In this document: piece after piece, positions 4,586-56,830 of the stretch
Layout: the number at the start of each line of letters is the position of its first letter
Position numbering within the stretch: the first letter of the stretch is position 1
Virus record (IMG/VR): IMGVR_UViG_3300044960_000525
Location: 1 to 63,192 of that record
From: a virus
Taxonomy: Duplodnaviria > Caudoviricetes
Direction: 5' to 3' (one strand)
Length of the DNA stretch: 63,192 nt
Notes under the pieces: generated by a model
The model's input: only the letters and a program-made list of their open reading frames with translations
Database searches by the model: none
Told to the model about the DNA's origin: nothing
Program-made: the position numbers and the translations under genes

Positions 4586-4642
4586 GGGGGTGTCTGGGGG
4601 GGGTTCCGTCTTCCCCCCTCTCTTCCCCCTCCCTCCCCCCGA

Positions 4643-4675
4643 GAAATCGCTCCTGGAGCCTCCCAGGGGCTCTGA
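4643..4675 (+). repeat. Dispersed phased motif, copy B
   Basis: GAAATCGCTCCTGGAGCCTCCCAGGGGCTCTGA preceded by G and C runs. Confidence 0.8.
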
Positions 4676-7280: not shown

Positions 7281-8769
7281 CGCGGCACTCATCCTGCAGC
7301 GGTCGCTCACGAATCCGGAGTTTTTTGCTCGAACGATTCTCGGTGTCTCCCTGTGGAAAACGCAGAGCGAGATTCTCAAAGCCACGTTGTCAAATCACAA
7401 ACGGGTAGCGGTAAAAGCCTGTCACGCGTCCGGCAAGTCGTTCGTGGCTGCCGTGATTGGGATGACGTTTGTGCATTTGAATATCCCGAGTGTGGTGGTG
7501 ACTACGGCTCCCACGCTTCGTCAAGTGGGAGCGGTGTTGTGGAAAGAGATTCATCGCATTTATCGAGGCGCACGAAAGCCCCTTGGGGGTCGGATGTTGC
7601 AGATGTCGTATGCGCTGGCCGACGATACGTTTATGATGGGATTGACCACCGATGATCCCAATAAATTCCAGGGATTCCACTCAGAAAACATTCTTGTCAT
7701 TGTTGATGAAGGACCGGGGGTTGAGGAAAATGTGTACGAAGCCATTGAAGGCGTCATGGCAGGAGGAAACGCGCGACTCTTGCTCCTTGGCAACCCTACG
7801 TCGCTCGAAGGGTCGTTTTATCGCGCATTTAATGATCCGGCCTATTCGCGTTTGTTCTACAAATTCACGATCTCGGCGTTCGACACCCCAAATGTGGTTG
7901 CGAAGAAAGAAATTATTCCGGGGCTGGTAACGCATCAATGGGTGAAAGAGCGACAAGCGGTTTGGGGCGTCGATCACCCGCTGTATCAAATCAAGGTCCT
8001 TGGGGAATTTCCTGGACGCGAATTCGGCGATCTTGTGATTCCACCAATTTTCATTGAGCGCGCGTTCAATGTCACGCTGAATCCGCTTCCTGACGATCCG
8101 GTCATTCTCGGTGTTGATATTGGTGAATTGGGAGGAGACGAAACGACATGTGCGCTTCGTCGCGGTCAGCGATTGTATTGGACAAAGGGATGGATTGACG
8201 CGACGCTCCCTCAGACTGTTCAACGCCTTCTTTCCATCATCAATGAGTATAAAGTCAACGAAGTCCGCATTGACAAGATTGGTGTTGGGGCTGGGGTCTA
8301 CCAAATGTTGAAAGAATTGGAAAACGAAGCCAAAGGACGATGGCGTGTGGTCGGGATTGATGTTCGTGAGAAACCTGTCAATGACGCCAAATACTACGAT
8401 TGTCGGTCAGAGATGTGGTATGAGTTTCGAGAGAATCTGCGCCATGATCGCATTGATCTCTCACAATTTATCAAGCAGACACGGGATAGCGACATTACCA
8501 TTGCCCAACTAACAACACCGAAGTTTCAACCGATGCCAAATAGTGGTCTCATCAAAGTGGAATCAAAAACAGAAATGCGCCGACGTGGTGTCGGGTCGCC
8601 AGATCGGGCCGATGCGGTTGTGCAAGCCTTTTATGATAGTTATGTGAGCAAGGAACCTATTGTGAACATCGGGAGTCCTGCGCAAATTGAAGCCATTATG
8701 AAGCAACCAAAGTGGACGGAGAGCGGAGAGGGGGGTCAAGCGCCGTGGCTAAGAACCCCATTCATGTAA
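7192..8769 (+). CDS. terL: Terminase large subunit
   Basis: Walker A ACHASGKS, Walker B VIVDE, LLGNP, nuclease LGVDIG and SPDRAD motifs; start at GTG 7192 (GAGGAG RBS) or ATG 7177. Confidence 0.95.
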   Translation: MKKKTPPLWPKERPLVVAPYYSGRALSKDDAALILQRSLTNPEFFARTILGVSLWKTQSEILKATLSNHKRVAVKACHASGKSFVAAVIGMTFVHLNIPSVVVTTAPTLRQVGAVLWKEIHRIYRGARKPLGGRMLQMSYALADDTFMMGLTTDDPNKFQGFHSENILVIVDEGPGVEENVYEAIEGVMAGGNARLLLLGNPTSLEGSFYRAFNDPAYSRLFYKFTISAFDTPNVVAKKEIIPGLVTHQWVKERQAVWGVDHPLYQIKVLGEFPGREFGDLVIPPIFIERAFNVTLNPLPDDPVILGVDIGELGGDETTCALRRGQRLYWTKGWIDATLPQTVQRLLSIINEYKVNEVRIDKIGVGAGVYQMLKELENEAKGRWRVVGIDVREKPVNDAKYYDCRSEMWYEFRENLRHDRIDLSQFIKQTRDSDITIAQLTTPKFQPMPNSGLIKVESKTEMRRRGVGSPDRADAVVQAFYDSYVSKEPIVNIGSPAQIEAIMKQPKWTESGEGGQAPWLRTPFM

Positions 8770-10298
8770 ACAAGCAATCACCAGTCGAGTTTCGAGAATT
8801 GGGCGTCACAGCCGTTCAAACGTCTTTTGGGACAATTTTCGATGAACGGTTGCCGAAATTGGTTGGCGTGCGCGGACGAGAGATTTATCGTCAAATGATG
8901 GATAACGATCCTGTTGTCGGCAGTATGATGTTGGCTGTTGAACAATCCATGCGATCAGTGAAATGGAAAGTGGACCCAGAAAATTCAACGGATGATGCGA
9001 AACGGGACGCTGAGTTTGTGTATCAAAACATGAACGATATGAGTCTCACGTGGCAAGATTTTATTACTGACGCCCTCTCCATGCTCGGGTACGGATGGTC
9101 CTATTTCGAGATACTCTACAAGCGTCGTGCGGGAGGCGACGAGGACGGTCCAGCGGAAATACGGTCTCGATACACCGACCGGCAAATTGGATGGAGAAAG
9201 TTTGCGATTCGGTCGCAGACGACACTAGACCATTGGGATTTGGACGATAAGGGTGGTCTTCGTGGCATGTATCAGCGAGACCCGAATACGGCGGCGCTGT
9301 ATTACATCCCAATTCAGAAATCTCTCCACTTCAAAACCAAACCGAGCGCAGGATCACCCGAAGGGCGGTCGCTTCTGCGAAATGCTTTTCGTCCGTGGTG
9401 GTTCAAAAAATATATTGAAGAAATCGAGGGGATTGGGGCTGAACGCGATCTCGCGGGGTTGCCGAAGATTATTGCTCCCAAAGGGGTAGATATTTTCAGC
9501 AAGCAGAATGAAAAATTGCTGTTTGCGTTGCAGGAACTCGTGAGAAACGTGCGTCAAGATAAATACGCGGGTATTATTCTTCCGGGAGAATATGAGTTTG
9601 AGTTAGTAGGATCGGCAGGCGCAAAGCAATTCGACACGAATCTGATTATTGCACGATACGATCAGCGAATTGCGATGACAATTCTCGCGCAGTTTATTTT
9701 GCTTGGGACAGAGCGCGTAGGATCGTATGCACTGGCCAGCCAGCAACGCGATTTGTTCACCACAGCCATCGAGGGATGGTTGTTGGTCCTCGAACAGGTT
9801 ATCAATAACTACGCGGTTGCGCGACTGATGCGCATCAACAATCGTCCGACTCGTCCGCTGATTACGCACGAGCCGGTGATTCAGCCGACGTTGCGTGAAC
9901 TGACGGATTCGTTGCGCGATCTCGATGAGCGCGGATACATTCTGCCGACCCTGGAGACAGAAAATGCGTTGCGTCGGAGGATGCTCTTGCCGCTTCGGTC
10001 GAACGACGATGACGAACGCGACGAGGAACGACCCCAGGACGTTGACAATGCGGTTGAGGAACTTCGGAGGGATGCGCTGGATGCATTTGACCGTTCGGAC
10101 AATGGGGTCCGTCTCAATGACTTGCTCCCGTATACGAAAGTGGTGAGAAAACTTGTCGAAGCCTTCGATAATGAAGATCGAGGAGTGACCCTCGCGCACA
10201 CGATGCGTGAAAAAGTGAAGCATGTCTTGCAACACAAGAACAAATTGAGCAAGCGCCAGATGCGGTCTCGACTCATGAAGGTCTTGAGCGAGGTGTGA
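8712..10298 (+). CDS. Portal protein (DUF935/Mu gp29-like)
   Basis: YRQMMDNDPVV, GWSYFEILYK, PEGRSLLR and ERDLAGLP motifs; follows TerL. Confidence 0.9.
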   Translation: MDGERRGGSSAVAKNPIHVNKQSPVEFRELGVTAVQTSFGTIFDERLPKLVGVRGREIYRQMMDNDPVVGSMMLAVEQSMRSVKWKVDPENSTDDAKRDAEFVYQNMNDMSLTWQDFITDALSMLGYGWSYFEILYKRRAGGDEDGPAEIRSRYTDRQIGWRKFAIRSQTTLDHWDLDDKGGLRGMYQRDPNTAALYYIPIQKSLHFKTKPSAGSPEGRSLLRNAFRPWWFKKYIEEIEGIGAERDLAGLPKIIAPKGVDIFSKQNEKLLFALQELVRNVRQDKYAGIILPGEYEFELVGSAGAKQFDTNLIIARYDQRIAMTILAQFILLGTERVGSYALASQQRDLFTTAIEGWLLVLEQVINNYAVARLMRINNRPTRPLITHEPVIQPTLRELTDSLRDLDERGYILPTLETENALRRRMLLPLRSNDDDERDEERPQDVDNAVEELRRDALDAFDRSDNGVRLNDLLPYTKVVRKLVEAFDNEDRGVTLAHTMREKVKHVLQHKNKLSKRQMRSRLMKVLSEV

Positions 10299-34189: not shown

Positions 34190-34363
34190 ATGAATCGCGC
34201 CAAATTGTTCCGTATCGTTGGCATAGAACTCAAAGAGGATTTTCGTTGGCGTATTCATGCGTCGGAATATCATCCTGAAATCTACGAGCCTGCAGAAGGC
34301 CTTCCCATGAAACTTCTTCGGGCGGAAAAATCAGCAAAAATCGAGAAAAAATCGAGAAAATGA
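34190..34363 (+). CDS. 57-aa ORF duplicating the gpJ-type terminal segment (not in track)
   Basis: GAGGTG RBS; MNRAKLFRIVGIELKEDFRWRIHASEYHPEIYE... Confidence 0.6.
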   Translation: MNRAKLFRIVGIELKEDFRWRIHASEYHPEIYEPAEGLPMKLLRAEKSAKIEKKSRK

Positions 34364-34364
34364 A

Positions 34365-34545
34365 TAATATAGATATAGAGATATAGATATAGATATAGGA
34401 ATTATCTCTTCCTCTCCATTCGATAAACATGCCCTTTGTTCTTCCTTTCATCTCCCTTTCAATAACATGCCTCTTTCATCTCCCTTTCAGTAACATGCCC
34501 TTTTATATTCCTTTCAGCAACATGCCTCTCTTTATCTCTATCCCT
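34365..34545. repeat. ATATAG microrepeats and four AACATGCC-containing repeats
   Basis: (ATATAG)n at about 34367-34398; AACATGCC at 34426, 34464, 34492 and 34519. Confidence 0.8.
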
Positions 34546-34610
34546 ATCCCCCCTTACCCCCCTTTCCCTTTCTCTTTTTCTCTCCTTTCCGTCATCGCCA
34601 TGTCTATTTT

Positions 34611-37511: not shown

Positions 37512-37545
37512 GGGGAGGGGGGGTGGTCTCCCCCCTTCCTCCCCA

Positions 37546-37593
37546 GAAAATCGCTCCTGGAGGCTCCTACGGGGCTTCCTGGGGCTTCTAGGA
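37546..37593 (+). repeat. Dispersed phased motif, copy E
   Basis: GAAAATCGCTCCTGGAGGCTCCTACGGGGCTTCCTGGGGCTTCTAGGA, intergenic. Confidence 0.85.
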
Positions 37594-43229: not shown

Positions 43230-43403
43230 ATGGCTATAGATTTTCACGTTGTCTTCGTTGATGAAGAGGGACAATTATGGGGTATTGATGTGTGTGCGGA
43301 GTCATGGGAAGACGCTCTCCAGCAAGCATTACATCGTCGTGCGCACGATCCTCTCGGATCGGCGTTATCGTCGGTTGTAACTATCGAGATTGACCATGAG
43401 TGA
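43230..43403 (+). CDS. Hypothetical protein
   Basis: AGGAG RBS. Confidence 0.5.
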   Translation: MAIDFHVVFVDEEGQLWGIDVCAESWEDALQQALHRRAHDPLGSALSSVVTIEIDHE

Positions 43404-43806
43404 GGCGAGACGATCCGAACGCAAAGGCGCACGATTGACACATTCTCGTCTTCATCGTGCGTCGGGGAGTTTGTGGATGCCGGGCGAGAAAGCAGACTAC
43501 GATAATGATGATTATGTGACCGAACACAAGCACACACGATACCGAACGTGGTATTTATCCCCCACCGTATGGAATCGTGTGGTGGAACAGGCCAATGCTG
43601 TACACAAACGTCCCCGGATTCTTGTGTGTTTTCGTCCGGTGGCCGGAATCGAATATTGGTGGGAAATTGTTGCATCGGAGGTCCCTCCACAACGCATCAC
43701 CAAGGGGTTTTTGGTCCATGCAGAGGACAATTCCAGGGACCGGAGGGGAGTTTGCGTTCGAAAGTTTTCCCCTCTTGACAAACGGGACCGACGGGGACTA
43801 CAATAA
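43396..43806 (+). CDS. Putative PD-(D/E)XK nuclease/resolvase
   Basis: SERK.A...ASGS...KAD...EHKHT pattern. Confidence 0.6.
   Translation: MSEARRSERKGARLTHSRLHRASGSLWMPGEKADYDNDDYVTEHKHTRYRTWYLSPTVWNRVVEQANAVHKRPRILVCFRPVAGIEYWWEIVASEVPPQRITKGFLVHAEDNSRDRRGVCVRKFSPLDKRDRRGLQ
43775..43804 (+). promoter_or_regulatory. Sigma70-type promoter
   Basis: TTGACA-N18-TACAAT. Confidence 0.75.
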
Positions 43807-43807
43807 A

Positions 43808-44082
43808 GGGGTCCCTGGGAGTACGGGAACGCGCATATCGCACTCCACGCGATCACTGTGGTCTGCCCTTCTTGGGGATGCACACATAATTCCATTGAAC
43901 CTGTCACCGACCCGATAGCCGAGCAGTGTGTGCCCAACGAGAGGCCGTGCAGTGTGCTGTGGAAACATTGGGGCTTCGGGTCTCCTCTCAAAATCCCGTA
44001 GAGGAGCAGGTTCAGTCCACAGTGCGCTGCACATTTTTCGGCCACGAAAGGGGTGAGAGACCGAATACTCCTGAAACGCCCT
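43808..44082 (+). ncRNA. Candidate structured pseudoknotted RNA 1 (unassigned family)
   Basis: 5'/3' closing stem, 17-bp stem with G-U pairs and loop-loop pairing; starts right after the promoter. Confidence 0.6.
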
Positions 44083-44121
44083 CATGTCTTATCCCAACAA
44101 TAATTGTCTAGGAGGATCGGT

Positions 44122-44730
44122 GTGCCAAAGGACAAACAGGAAATTCCTGACCTGTGGGAATTGCTCGAAGAGATTCAGAAAAACGAGCACGCGGCTAATC
44201 TGAAAATTGCGGAGAAGTGGCCGACGCTGTATTACGCGATCTCCGCGATGAACGCTCAGGAAATTGATGAATGGCTTCAAACAGCAGCACAGACAAAGGG
44301 CGTGAAGGTCAAGAAAGACGTGAGTGTTGCTGAGAGTGATGACGACGAGGAGGACGACGAAGAGGGCGACGACGACGAAGACGAAGACGAAGACGAAGAC
44401 GACGACGACGACGAAGACGAAGACGAAGACGAAGACGAAGACGAAGACGAAGACGAAGACGAAGACGAAGACGAAGACGAAGACGAAGACGAAGACGACG
44501 ACGAAGACGACGACGAGGAGGAGGACGAGGAGTTGGCGCGTAAACCCCTTCACAAGGACGACGAAGAGGACGAAGACGAGGAGGAGGAAGACGAGGAGGA
44601 CGAGGAGGAGACACCCAAGAAGCGGGCTTCTGCAGCAACGAAGCGGCAGGTTGCTGTGACAAAGAAGCGTCGTGGACCGGGGCGTCCGAGGGGAGTGAAG
44701 GACCGTAAGCCACGGAAGAAGCGACGCTAA
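44122..44730 (+). CDS. Polyacidic protein with basic AT-hook-like C-terminus
   Basis: AGGAGG RBS before GTG; ~65-residue Asp/Glu tract; C-terminal RRGPGRPRGVKDRKPRKKRR. Confidence 0.85.
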   Translation: MPKDKQEIPDLWELLEEIQKNEHAANLKIAEKWPTLYYAISAMNAQEIDEWLQTAAQTKGVKVKKDVSVAESDDDEEDDEEGDDDEDEDEDEDDDDDEDEDEDEDEDEDEDEDEDEDEDEDEDEDDDEDDDEEEDEELARKPLHKDDEEDEDEEEEDEEDEEETPKKRASAATKRQVAVTKKRRGPGRPRGVKDRKPRKKRR

Positions 44731-44945: not shown

Positions 44946-45899
44946 ATGAAACTCCCGCCGATTGTCGGAAAATCATCAAAGCGGCTCTACGCGCATCTCA
45001 AACACATGCTCCGTACTTCTCGCACGCCGATTGCGTTGGTTGGTCCGACGGGATCGGGCAAGACGCTCATTGGGCTGCATCTCCTCTCCTGGTACGAGCG
45101 TACATTCCGCGTTCCGTCGTACTACTTGCAAATGTCGCCGGATACGAACCGCACGGTGCTCGTCGGAGGGTTTCGTCTCATCGAGGGGTCTCTGACACCC
45201 GTGAAAGGAGTGATTATGCGGGCACAGGACGAAGGAGGAATTGTGTTCCTCGATGAGTTTACGCACGCGGAGACGGACGATCAGGCGTCGGTTAACAGCG
45301 CGTTCAACAGCGACCGTGTGAAGATCGTCTCAATTGGTGAATTGGTGAGCGAAGCCCAGTCGAGTACGCGCTATATGATTGCGCACAACCCCATCACGTA
45401 TGCGGGAAATCATCCTATGCCGATTTCGCTCCGACGGCGATTGTATTCGGTCTGGGTGGATTTTCCCCCAGTGCAAGAAGAAAGTCGAATAGCGCGCGCA
45501 ATCGTCCAGCGAGAGACGAACAAGAAACCGCTTCGGGCCCTCGTGCAGTATCTGGTCCAAATTGCGCGAGAAATCCGCAACGAAGACGCGCCTCTGTGCG
45601 CAGCGAACGTCGCTAATGCGATAATGGCGCTCTCCACCCTCAAGAAGGGTGAAACGACGGAGTTGCTCCCAGAACAGACGCTCACGGAGGCGGTCTATCG
45701 GAATCTCTACACCAAGATTCATGGCACAGCCCCGACTTCGACAGAAGCCCTCGACGATAAATCCGTTATCGCACTTCACACGCTGATTGCTCGCGTCGGC
45801 GGAGAACAATTCAGAGACATTGTGTTTCGCGCGTTCATGGGACCCTATCTCACGGAGAAAACTCGCGCGACGCTCGTGGCGTTGCTCCCGCAGTTCTAG
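44946..45899 (+). CDS. MoxR-family AAA+ ATPase
   Basis: GPTGSGKT, VFLDE, AHNP..YAG and LRRR motifs. Confidence 0.9.
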   Translation: MKLPPIVGKSSKRLYAHLKHMLRTSRTPIALVGPTGSGKTLIGLHLLSWYERTFRVPSYYLQMSPDTNRTVLVGGFRLIEGSLTPVKGVIMRAQDEGGIVFLDEFTHAETDDQASVNSAFNSDRVKIVSIGELVSEAQSSTRYMIAHNPITYAGNHPMPISLRRRLYSVWVDFPPVQEESRIARAIVQRETNKKPLRALVQYLVQIAREIRNEDAPLCAANVANAIMALSTLKKGETTELLPEQTLTEAVYRNLYTKIHGTAPTSTEALDDKSVIALHTLIARVGGEQFRDIVFRAFMGPYLTEKTRATLVALLPQF

Positions 45900-45916: not shown

Positions 45917-47548
45917 GTGTTCGACCCCAGGATGCTTGTTGGATCACGGCGTATTGAAATTCGACGGGGGTCTGTGAGTGAACAAACCTCCCGGTATCTC
46001 GACACCGGTAGTCTCTCTCTCGGCTATTGCCAAAAAACGAATGACGGGTATTGTGTTGTGCTCTTTACTCCCAAGGGCACGAGACCGGTGGTTGATTTGG
46101 GGCTTGTGACACACGAAATTGCGCATATTCGATATGGGTCGCTCGATCACCTAATGTTATTCAGGAACTATCAACGGCAGTGGGGAGAATTAGCCTCGGT
46201 ATTTTGCGCAATCTGGAATTACCTTGAAGATGTACGGGTCGAGTACCAATTCGTGCTCGATTTCCCTCATGCGTTCCCCTATATCGCCGCGTTTCGCGGT
46301 GTGATGCGTGACATGATTGTTCGCTGGAAAACCTGGAAAACGTCGTTGCCTTCAGACCCGGCTGAGCATGACGCGAGAAATCAACTCCAAAAAGCCTTGG
46401 ACGTTACACGCGATTTTGTTCAGTTTGGAACGTATCCGCCAGATTGGCGTTCTGAAGTGAACTTTCTCGCAGGGCGACTGACGCTGGTTGCGCGAAGTAC
46501 GTCGGCGAAAGATACGTTGAGACTCGCAAGCGAATATCTTGCATATGTGATTCTGCGCCGAAACATTCCTATCCCGAAAACGAATGTTCAAGTTGAACAA
46601 AAACTCAATCGCAAGCGGGCCAACGACATTGAGCGTATAGCGTCTCAAGAGTCACACGCGCAGGGAAGTCGTCGCGCATCAACAACGCGTTCCAAAAACA
46701 CCCACATTCAGCCGACAACTCCTTGGGGTGGGGCTCAAGGCCAGTGGGATAGACTTGTGAAGGGGTTTGCGCACCAACTCATGCACGGCGGTGGAGTAGG
46801 GGTCAGTGATTCCATGAAGATACTCGATGTGATCGAGACGAGCGGATTTGTGGCTCGCGTCGAATCTATGCGAAAGGATGAGATTCGCCGCTATACCGAA
46901 GCGTTCAAGCGCATCGAATCTCGAACAACCCATTATGCGCATGATGGGATCATTGCACTGGAACGACAACAGGATGCGTACACGCAATCCTTCCTCGGTC
47001 CCGATGACCAGGGAAAGGTGTACGCGCGAAAACGGCGAGTGCCCGCACAGTATGATGCGGCAGTGGTTATTGATGTGAGTGGGTCAATGGGAGCGTTGGC
47101 GGAACAAGCCATGAGCGATGCGGTCGTACTCGTGAAAGCGATGGATTCGCCTCATGTTCGATTGGGGATTTTTGGGGTCAACAACGACCTCCATGTCTAC
47201 AAACACTTTGACGAACGACTGGAGGCTGCACGCCTGTCCATAAGGAGCGAGGGACTCACGAACTTCCATCACTTCTTCACGAAATTCCCGACAATTGCGA
47301 CGTGGACCCATCCACGCCGCATGATTTTCATCATCAGCGACGGTAAATGGTCTTGGGGAAGGATTGTGCCTGACACTATCAAGAACAATCCGTTCTACCA
47401 GGACGTTGAGTGGTATGTCGTGTTCATGAATGAGTGGCGCATCCTTGAATATGGGGCGTTGGATAAAACAAAAGCCATGTTCAAGCAGGTGTTCTTCACG
47501 CTTCCGGATGCGGTGAGCGCCGCGACAGGAATGAGGGTTGCCCAATGA
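45917..47548 (+). CDS. VWA-domain protein with N-terminal HExxH region (CobT-like MoxR partner)
   Basis: THEIAH, NYLEDVRVE, MIDAS DVSGSM and ISDG motifs. Confidence 0.88.
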   Translation: MFDPRMLVGSRRIEIRRGSVSEQTSRYLDTGSLSLGYCQKTNDGYCVVLFTPKGTRPVVDLGLVTHEIAHIRYGSLDHLMLFRNYQRQWGELASVFCAIWNYLEDVRVEYQFVLDFPHAFPYIAAFRGVMRDMIVRWKTWKTSLPSDPAEHDARNQLQKALDVTRDFVQFGTYPPDWRSEVNFLAGRLTLVARSTSAKDTLRLASEYLAYVILRRNIPIPKTNVQVEQKLNRKRANDIERIASQESHAQGSRRASTTRSKNTHIQPTTPWGGAQGQWDRLVKGFAHQLMHGGGVGVSDSMKILDVIETSGFVARVESMRKDEIRRYTEAFKRIESRTTHYAHDGIIALERQQDAYTQSFLGPDDQGKVYARKRRVPAQYDAAVVIDVSGSMGALAEQAMSDAVVLVKAMDSPHVRLGIFGVNNDLHVYKHFDERLEAARLSIRSEGLTNFHHFFTKFPTIATWTHPRRMIFIISDGKWSWGRIVPDTIKNNPFYQDVEWYVVFMNEWRILEYGALDKTKAMFKQVFFTLPDAVSAATGMRVAQ

Positions 47549-51845: not shown

Positions 51846-52071
51846 TGACCTGAGTGTGTTCCAGATGTGCTTAGTGGCTGAAATGGTCAGCGCGCTCAGC
51901 CCGCGAGGAGAGGAGTTCCGGAGGTGGTGGAACTTCCACGTGCCCAAGACAGCGGTTGAGGAGTCCCGGCTGCTGCGGGACACCTACGTGAAGGCGTTGG
52001 TGCTCGCGCTGGTCATCAGCATGATTGCTGGGCTGTACGTGCTGATGTGCGGCTACGCAGGCGGCCCCTGA
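51699..52071 (+). CDS. Hypothetical membrane protein
   Basis: C-terminal TM helix; start uncertain. Confidence 0.55.
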
Positions 52072-52320
52072 CCGCCCGAATCGTAGAGGCTCCTGCTACA
52101 ACGGCGGGATGGGTTGGTTGGGGGCCGCCCGCTCGTGTAAGGGACGTTGAGGGAGGAACGGTTATGAAGCGCAAAACCGAGCAACAGTCTTTGTGGGGAG
52201 TGCGTCTCCTGTTCGAGACAGTGACGGTTGACATACCAGGAGAACGGCAGATCAAGGTGCCCATGACGAGTCCACAGGGGGGCTTGGCCGGGGTGATTCT
52301 GGAGCGAAAGGAGACGGGAG

Positions 52321-54660: not shown

Positions 54661-54997
54661 GTGATAAGGAGGGAGAATGACCTATGCGCCTATCCGAGTT
54701 CTGGACGATGTTGAATAATGACCGACGTGGTATTGGGCTCAAAATTATTCTCCTTGCTCTCCTTATGCTCATAGCAGCGTTGCTGGAACCGAGATAGCAA
54801 GGAATCCGACCGTGGCGATTTCACAATTCTTCCGCTTTTCCTGGGGTCGAGCGGGGTGAAGTCGTCACGGTCACTTCATTGTTCGTGGGATTATGGGTCT
54901 GCACACGACATTGAAACTGGGGAGGGGGTTGAGAACGCGGCGCAGAAAACGGAATCCGCATGACAGCAGGGATGAACCGTGGAGGAGATGAACAGGG

Positions 54998-56371: not shown

Positions 56372-56401
56372 TTGACGGAACCTTACTAAATCCCCTATAC
56401 T
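56372..56401 (+). promoter_or_regulatory. Sigma70-type early promoter
   Basis: TTGACG-N18-TATACT. Confidence 0.75.
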
Positions 56402-56409
56402 TCACTTAA

Positions 56410-56830
56410 ACTGCATAAGTAGTGGTGAACGTAGTCCCGTGACCACGGGACACCGCCGAGTGACGTTGGAACGGGTGATGCTGTTCCAAACGATGCGAGG
56501 TGGGGGAAAGAAAGGCGGGGTGCATGAACCCGCGCGGATCACCCGGGGTGACGCCGAGCCGAGAGGACAGACGCGAATCACCCCCCCCTGGGGAGGGCCG
56601 AGAGGACAGACAACCTGGGGATGCAGCACATAACCCGATGACCCGCCGGACGGATGGAGTGATGACCTAAAGTCGGGGCTCATTACTTCCTGCGGTGCGT
56701 GCTTCGTGTTCGGCGGATCAGGGTCGCGAGCCGCAGGAGGTGATGGGCCCCGCGCCGTTCCAGAACGACCCCGGGGGGAACACGCCATGGAGAATGAGCG
56801 CCCGGGAGAGAAAGAACACAAAGGGCAGGA
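56410..56830 (+). ncRNA. Candidate structured pseudoknotted RNA 2 (shares core with RNA 1)
   Basis: 21-bp stem with 3 G-U pairs, pseudoknot, several hairpins and shared TGGGGATGCA(G)CACATAA motif; 3' end approximate. Confidence 0.6.

Follow-up and report, generated by a model that had tools for sequence, protein, structure and literature searches.

A strand-specific hairpin behind a near-consensus promoter as a possible terminator or attenuator in the leader of an acidic-protein operon of a hot-spring tailed phage

The stretch of about 300 nt (43807-44103) that separates the ORF at 43390-43806 from the gene of a polyacidic protein in a hot-spring tailed phage contains one 86-nt hairpin that is more stable than shuffled sequence allows and that clearly favours the + strand. 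We read this stretch, tentatively and with a probability of about 0.42, as the 5' leader of the acidic-protein operon with a promoter-proximal terminator or attenuator hairpin, in the manner of lambda pR'-tR'. As judged from the sequence, it would form the untranslated 5' leader of an operon for the acidic protein, an AAA_5 ATPase and a VWA protein, with host RNA polymerase initiating at a sigma-70-type promoter that is close to consensus and probably regulated. The very stable hairpin, with A-U5 behind it, would form some 137 nt into the transcript and would act as a promoter-proximal intrinsic terminator or pause site (attenuator). A fraction of the transcripts would stop by default near 44036-44040, giving an RNA of ~225 nt, and expression of the downstream operon would depend on read-through; the start of transcription, its termination and the regulated read-through are all steps that we infer. 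If true, this arrangement would be an internal, regulated boundary between transcription units in an uncultivated hot-spring phage, and the promoter, the operator-like repeats and the stop hairpin would offer a handle on the timing of the acidic protein/AAA_5 ATPase/VWA module. No new RNA class is opened by these results and their main value is negative, in that a multi-helix drawing made in a first-pass annotation shrinks to a single hairpin when each helix is compared with shuffled sequences and with the genome background.

The window, by which we mean the whole stretch of DNA that was analysed, is one virus record of 63,192 nt with an estimated completeness of 38%. Near-identical DNA is present in metagenome runs from hot springs and microbial mats, and the run contigs that cover the stretch between the two genes are DNA and near-identical to the window. 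Nearly all long ORFs of the window lie on the + strand, and the PHROGs and Pfam matches lay out a tailed-phage genome (Table 1) in which the stretch sits at the right edge of the replication block. The 138-aa protein encoded upstream of it belongs to no Pfam or PHROGs family; a reading of its sequence by eye suggests a D...E-x-K-type (PD-(D/E)XK-like) nuclease motif, and its homologues in two related loci, L019 and L021, were recognised from translations that were also compared by eye. A C-terminal tail of ~30 aa, which overlaps the promoter, is not conserved in the relatives' versions. The acidic proteins of the window, of L019 (~9048-9549) and of L021 (3156-3656) have in common an N-terminal domain of ~70 aa, an extended run of Asp and Glu and, at the C-terminus, a basic tail, which in the window carries an RGPGRPRG-like motif; in all three the gene is found upstream of the AAA_5 ATPase and VWA genes.

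Table 1. Features of the window that bear on the stretch between the replication block and the acidic-protein gene.
Feature	Coordinates	Strand	Remarks
Terminase, portal, protease, major head, tape measure and tail genes	7-34 kb (7-35 kb including lysis)		PHROGs and Pfam; tailed-phage layout
Endolysin	34.9 kb		PHROGs/Pfam
Replication block	35.9-43.8 kb		PHROGs/Pfam; primase, SSB, DnaE-type polymerase, RecA, Cas4-like nuclease, cold-shock-domain protein
Upstream gene, 138-aa protein	43390-43806	+	Homologues at the equal syntenic position: L019 7567-8304, L021 2317-2802
Direct repeat GGGACCGRMGGGGA (14 nt), copy 1	43736-43749	+	Upstream of the -35 element
Sigma-70-type promoter	43775-43804	+	TTGACA 43775-80, 18-nt spacer, TACAAT 43799-804
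Direct repeat GGGACCGRMGGGGA (14 nt), copy 2	43784-43797		Inside the promoter spacer
5' part of the leader	43811-43946	+	z = +0.07; 99 of 200 shuffles fold equally well or better
Closing helix	43816-23/44066-73		8 bp, 2 G-U
Alternative ("switch") partner	43854-61/44017-24		8 bp, 0 G-U
Helix	43880-87/43926-33		8 bp, 1 G-U
Loop-loop (pseudoknot) helix	43894-904/44006-16		11 bp, 2 G-U; 10 bp in the first-pass annotation
86-nt hairpin	43947-44032	+	17-bp basal stem (3 G-U), 4-nt bulge, weak middle helix, apical CUCCUCU/AGAGGAG stem
Short U-run, terminator-like tail	44033-44039	+	A-TTTTT-C, abutting the 3' foot of the stem
Possible SD/start-sequestering helix	44060-44122	+	ACCGA..CUCCUG (44060-73) with CUAGGAG..UCGGU (44108-22)
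ORFs of 47, 61 and 42 aa	ORF47 43858-44001; ORF61 43926-44111	+	
ORFs of 95 and 177 aa		-	
Polyacidic protein with basic tail	44121-44730	+	SD AGGAGG 44111-16, start GTG 44121
AAA_5 ATPase	44946-45899		Pfam; downstream of the polyacidic-protein gene
VWA protein	45917-47548		Pfam; after the AAA_5 ATPase

The promoter directly upstream of the stretch agrees with the consensus at 11 of 12 positions, and the pattern TTGACA-N15-19-TANAAT has this single match in the 63 kb (at least one match appears in 4 of 100 shuffled sequences), which bears out the promoter of the first-pass annotation as a near-consensus site of sigma-70 type. Transcription would begin at approximately 43811, some 7 nt past the -10 element. 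The exact repeat GGGACCGRMGGGGA occurs in the window at 43736 and 43784 only. In L019 an exact 16-mer, CCGGGTCCCCGGTCCG, has its only two copies at 8253-8268 and 8347-8362, where they bracket a promoter that, as read from the sequence, consists of TTGACA (8307-12), a 19-nt spacer and TACAAT (8332-37) right behind the stop of the upstream-gene homologue. This site was skipped by our promoter scan, which reported 0 promoter-like sites for L019, because its spacer of 19 nt lies outside the scanner's range of 16-18 nt. The position of the promoter is thus conserved in a distant relative. The direct repeats around it resemble operators at which a phage regulator might bind, and the promoter is probably regulated; a candidate DNA-binding protein of the phage is the HTH protein encoded at 2181-2495.

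All of the pairings drawn in the first-pass annotation are present at their positions in an exhaustive list of stems for 43808-44082, and it is the stem pairing 43947-63 with 44016-32 over 17 bp, three of them G-U, that goes beyond chance, as a stem of at least 17 bp appears in none of 300 dinucleotide shuffles and the longest shuffled stem has 15 bp. The hairpin as a whole folds with -42.8 kcal/mol (z = -5.43, none of 200 shuffles as stable), compared with -29.7 kcal/mol (z -2.63) on the - strand, and gives a z of -4.43 when it is folded as single-stranded DNA. In a scan of 6310 genome segments it ranks 8th on the + strand, where it is approximately the sixth distinct locus, and 425th on the - strand, with the caveat that the register of the scan was set on the hairpin itself and is slightly biased in its favour. 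The three G-U pairs in the stem make the fold clearly better on the transcribed strand, and this strand preference fits a hairpin acting at the RNA level, as the tolerance of G-U pairs had been taken to indicate. Since the hairpin lies directly 3' of a conserved strong promoter, it would be transcribed if that promoter is active. It alone stays constant at 37, 55, 65 and 75 °C, with the remaining helices rearranging, and in energy, z-score, persistence to 75 °C and strand it has the stable stem-loop of an intrinsic terminator.

The hairpin begins ~137 nt past the putative start of transcription and its A-U5 tail ends ~227 nt past it. Our terminator scan was unable to list this structure because its loop exceeds the scanner's limit of 3-8 nt; other sites of the window have tails like CATTTTTTCG and CCATTTTTGC. 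The A-T5 run is short: the window's clear terminators, which are compact, with stems of 10-13 bp and loops of 4-5 nt, have longer runs of T7-T9. Most of the remaining hairpins that rank among the strongest on the + strand of this phage lie between genes or where genes end, and several of them are clear terminators (1718-46 plus T9 and 17198-222 are examples). Two further long hairpins, at 54797 and 56667, lack a T-run, and a ribosome-binding site is embedded in one of the two, so long hairpins in this phage are not necessarily terminators. One depth-2 contig of two equal-size runs reads T for C at 44039, which lengthens the T-run from 5 to 6 and may be a sequencing error.

Beyond this hairpin the stretch is no more structured than shuffled sequence. 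Counting stems of 8 bp or more that have no more than two G-U pairs gives 4, against 3.82 ± 1.93 in shuffles, and a stem of 10 bp or more under the same G-U limit, the class to which the loop-loop helix belongs, is present in 33% of 300 shuffles. The full 275 nt has an MFE of -105.9 kcal/mol on the + strand (z = -2.21, 2 of 200 shuffles as stable) and a z of -1.04 on the reverse strand, and ranks 102nd of 630 genome segments on the + strand when MFE is regressed on G+C (residual -0.84 sd). When it is taken apart, the 5' part is at the level of shuffles (Table 1), as is the 3' part with the ribosome-binding site included (44033-44130, z +0.39, 132 of 200 shuffles at least as stable). Set beside the z-score of the hairpin, these values mean that the signal comes from one + strand hairpin and not from a multi-domain fold, and the compact ~275-nt RNA of several helices that had been proposed is not borne out; in the comparison with shuffles that its authors had named as a check, the hairpin held and all else did no better than chance.

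The individual helices fare accordingly. The closing helix is as frequent as in shuffles, and it is lost once the ribosome-binding site is included, for in the MFE structures at both 37 and 65 °C it is replaced by the pairing of 44060-73 with 44108-22, the two being mutually exclusive; this putative SD-sequestering helix is itself at chance level (z +0.39, 132 of 200, for its segment). The switch that had been hinted at would use 43854-61 with 44017-24, and a further candidate partner for an attenuator is the direct repeat GCCGWGCAGTGTG at 43918 and 43944, but stems of like size are equally common in shuffles. We also consider the loop-loop pseudoknot sterically unlikely, since strand 44006-16 abuts both the 17-bp stem (at 44016) and the apical stem (at 44006) with no linkers. 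The helices other than the long hairpin, including the pseudoknot and the "switch", are at chance level and are not needed.

That no known RNA class could be recognised agrees with Rfam, which gives 0 matches in the whole window at the gathering score and, at E <= 10 in 43300-44400, one match to a C/D snoRNA model (E 5.1) that lies within the acidic-protein gene. A blastn search of the stretch against the phage collection returned no match, and blastn and nhmmer searches against L019-L021 returned short chance matches only. An exact 17-mer has three single matches in viral_contigs, with dissimilar surroundings, and a degenerate two-arm hairpin pattern has 0 matches in genome_contigs. A promoter-plus-motif pattern found 15 loci in viral_contigs, none with any of seven neighbouring window proteins and none resembling the stretch. 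A CRISPR-repeat mimic (RNA anti-CRISPR) was considered and rejected, as an 18-mer of the stem arm has eight single matches in genome_contigs and none is repeated within a locus. By our own estimate the numbers of 18-mer and 17-mer matches are about those expected by chance.

Relatives were also sought through the neighbouring proteins. A search of the protein collection with the AAA_5 ATPase gave 10 relatives, at 34-73% identity, the closest being P0002 (73%), with P0003-P0005 and P0008-P0009 also among the closer ones, and an alignment search with the ATPase found three loci in metagenome_contigs (L019, L020 and L021) and 0 in viral_contigs and in genome_contigs. L020 is 99% identical to L019, so the three loci amount to two independent phages; the ATPase of L019 is 49% identical to that of the window. 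Neither the ATPase nor the upstream ORF gave a locus when viral_contigs was scanned with each protein singly, and a scan with RecA found only 14 loci, at 26-37% identity. The gene order of L019 and L021 is that of the window (DnaE, RecA, Cas4-like, the homologue of ORF 43390-43806, acidic protein, ATPase, VWA), but in the interval that the stretch occupies in the window they carry small ORFs (51/72, 135 and 76 aa). A tblastn comparison of these small ORFs with the stretch gave nothing significant; the best matches in the 2.4-kb region have E 0.005 (an acidic repeat outside the stretch) and, for the others, E >= 0.41. The leaders before the acidic-protein gene fold no better than shuffles in either relative (z +1.17 in L021, z -0.41 in L019).

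L019 has a canonical terminator at 8546-8582, a 13-bp stem plus T7 that ends ~238 nt past the putative start, which compares with ~227 nt for the U-run in the window, so that the layout from promoter to stop recurs. A 51-aa ORF with a good ribosome-binding site lies between this promoter and this terminator, and the analogy with the window is for that reason positional only. The corresponding region of L021, when scanned, gave 0 promoter-like and 0 terminator-like sites. An identical 12-mer, CCTGGGAGTACG, is found at 43814-43825 in the window and at 2808-2819 in L021, a few nt past the stop of the homologous upstream gene, where in L021 it is the beginning of the 76-aa ORF; with E = 14 we rejected it as a conserved signal and take it to be chance.

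The stretch holds no supported ORF, in agreement with its description as gene-free. None of its ORFs, the 42-aa frame set aside, has a Pfam or PHROGs family, and their codon scores, from -0.07 to -0.21, fall in the off-frame range (true genes score 0.153 ± 0.088), although this is a weak measure given that the acidic-protein gene's own N-terminus scores -0.25. The large-library protein search, which among these frames covered ORF61 alone, gave two matches at E <= 0.001 among 1.84 billion representatives, both of them repeat proteins aligned in 4-5 stretches. We regard a small protein encoded by ORF47, by ORF61 or by a 34-aa frame that starts at GTG 43952 behind GAGAGG as the most improbable of the explanations considered. 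Open frames do exist and the relatives have small genes at the equivalent place; the stop of ORF61 overlaps the SD of the next gene, and GAGAGG stands 6 nt ahead of GTG 43952. Against this, the off-frame codon scores (-0.106 to -0.212) and the lack of Pfam or PHROGs families are joined by the nature of the two ORF61 matches, by the lack of an SD at GTG 43858 and GTG 43926, and by the burial of GTG 43952 in the 17-bp stem.

The leader with a promoter-proximal stop has in its favour the unique 11/12 promoter, the synteny with L019, the repeats, the z-score of the hairpin and the T5 at the foot of the stem, and has against it a run of only five U preceded by A, a hairpin of unusual length, the lack of an antiterminator family among the matches, the lack of the corresponding sites in L021, and alternative antiterminator pairings that are no commoner than chance. 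The short U-run, the length of the hairpin, the missing antiterminator gene and the other hairpins without T-runs make control of processing, stability or translation a serious rival. In such a case the leader would be read through, and the hairpin would serve the processing or the stability of the RNA, as an RNase III-type site or a 5' stabiliser, and set the 5' end, the half-life or the translation of the acidic-protein mRNA instead of stopping transcription; we hold this to be possible but doubtful. Long, near-continuous helices are typical of substrates of double-strand-specific RNases, and the hairpin, with its 17 bp, 4-nt bulge and more helices beyond, is long and nearly continuous in a way that is atypical of terminators. 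G-U pairs that are tolerated strand-specifically, a weak U-run, and other long intergenic hairpins without T-runs, of which 56667-56752 carries a ribosome-binding site in its 3' arm, point in the same direction. RNase III is, however, usually quoted as needing roughly 20-22 bp, or about two turns of double-stranded RNA, and the continuous stem offers 17 bp plus coaxial extensions; the position of T5 exactly at the 3' foot of the stem and the true terminator at the equivalent distance from the promoter in L019 also speak for a stop.

It is less probable that the segment from about 43811 to 44038 is a self-contained, strongly expressed small-RNA gene of ~225 nt belonging to a thermophile's phage and acting in trans or in cis. 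Such a unit would fill the slot that the small protein gene of L019 occupies between the same promoter and terminator; in trans it might act on host or phage mRNAs as StxS or lambda 6S would, with the exposed anti-SD-like CUCCU motifs as candidates, and in cis it might act on the polymerase in a put-like fashion to control read-through. We consider it equally unlikely that the stretch has no RNA function at all and is spacer DNA or what is left of a decaying sequence, such as a small gene of the sort that the relatives have here, with the inverted repeat as a DNA-level site or an accident. The small ORFs of L019 and L021 in the equivalent interval, the failure to detect any homologue of the stretch, and the fact that the hairpin stands out also as single-stranded DNA and on the - strand are what one would cite for this, but those small ORFs have no significant tblastn match to the stretch, the stem with its three G-U pairs is clearly more stable in the sense of transcription, and a conserved strong promoter lies directly upstream. 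A discrete, compact RNA of ~275 nt representing a new structural class, riboswitch- or ribozyme-like and with a 5'/3' closing helix, a pseudoknot and a switch, is very unlikely. Its pairings all exist, the element as a whole reaches a z of -2.21, Rfam offers no family, a promoter lies upstream, and the gap is long for so dense a genome (a rough + strand ORF map has only 10 gaps of more than 150 nt, a count that omits the present gap because ORF61 was counted as filling it). The whole folding signal nevertheless comes from one hairpin, the closing helix, switch partner and pseudoknot occur at chance frequency, and the structure outside the hairpin shifts with temperature and context; the rank of 102 of 630 against the genome background, the pseudoknot strand without a linker to either flanking helix and the lack of a homologous stretch in L019, L020 and L021 add to this.

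Returning to the leader with a terminator or attenuator, the closest known arrangement is that of the lambdoid late promoter, whose pR' transcripts end at tR' just downstream to give a short RNA such as lambda 6S or StxS (PMC7547250). A strong sigma-70 promoter, a hairpin plus U-run within a few hundred nt and a long operon beyond are common to both, and here too transcription would by default yield a short non-coding RNA (PMC7547250 for the lambdoid case). The promoter (11/12) and the hairpin plus U5, which ends ~227 nt past the putative start, are present here at the level of sequence only. The differences are that we found no Q-type antiterminator gene in the 63-kb window, that the genes downstream are not structural or lysis genes (which lie at 7-35 kb), and that the hairpin, a putative terminator, is far longer than a usual one and has a U-run of only 5 nt. 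No Q, N or gp39-like antiterminator family is among the PHROGs matches (E <= 1e-5) of the 83 ORFs of this 38%-complete record or among those of the 14 and 46 ORFs scanned with Pfam, and no Q-family gene stands beside the promoter in the record so scanned.

The clear terminators of this phage and of L019 are likewise + strand hairpins between genes with a T-run directly after them, and the one in L019 is about as far from the homologous promoter as the hairpin is here. They differ in having G+C-rich stems of 10-13 bp, loops of 4-5 nt and T7-T9, compared with 86 nt, a structured top of 52 nt, three G-U pairs and an A-T5 tail here. RNase III processing hairpins occur in phage early mRNAs (T7, the lambda N leader) and resemble the present one in being long, imperfect duplexes that lie in the leader of, or between genes on, RNA synthesised by the host polymerase, but the continuous stem here has 17 bp and a U-run at its foot. 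For a thermophile's phage there is a precedent of read-through control in gp39 of Thermus phage P23-45, a small protein that controls read-through of intrinsic terminators (PMC3351154). No gp39-like family is among the family matches of the window.

Several other sites of the window have features of a similar kind. At 56372-56760 a promoter-like TTGACG-N18-TATACT (10/12) precedes ~320 nt that are poor in ORFs and in which the motif CCGAGAGGACAGAC recurs, and the strongest hairpin of the window (56667-56752, -57.8 kcal/mol) holds the ribosome-binding site and start of the next gene, GGAGGTGATG, in its 3' arm. Dense short tandem and direct repeats (GATATAGATATAG and CATCTCCCTTTCAATAACATGCC-like units) that resemble iterons or an origin lie at 34320-34600, with a TTGACC-N16-TATAAT promoter and the gene of a small membrane protein following closely downstream. 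An IS110-family transposase gene (phrog_4285, E 5.8e-40; PF02371) lies inside the phage at 52047-53160, and one of the strongest + strand hairpins is found just upstream of it at ~52047-52130. Finally, GAAATCGCTCCTGGA follows directly after G/C-homopolymer hairpins at two intergenic sites, ~4600-4660 and ~37540-37560, and may be a shared regulatory signal.
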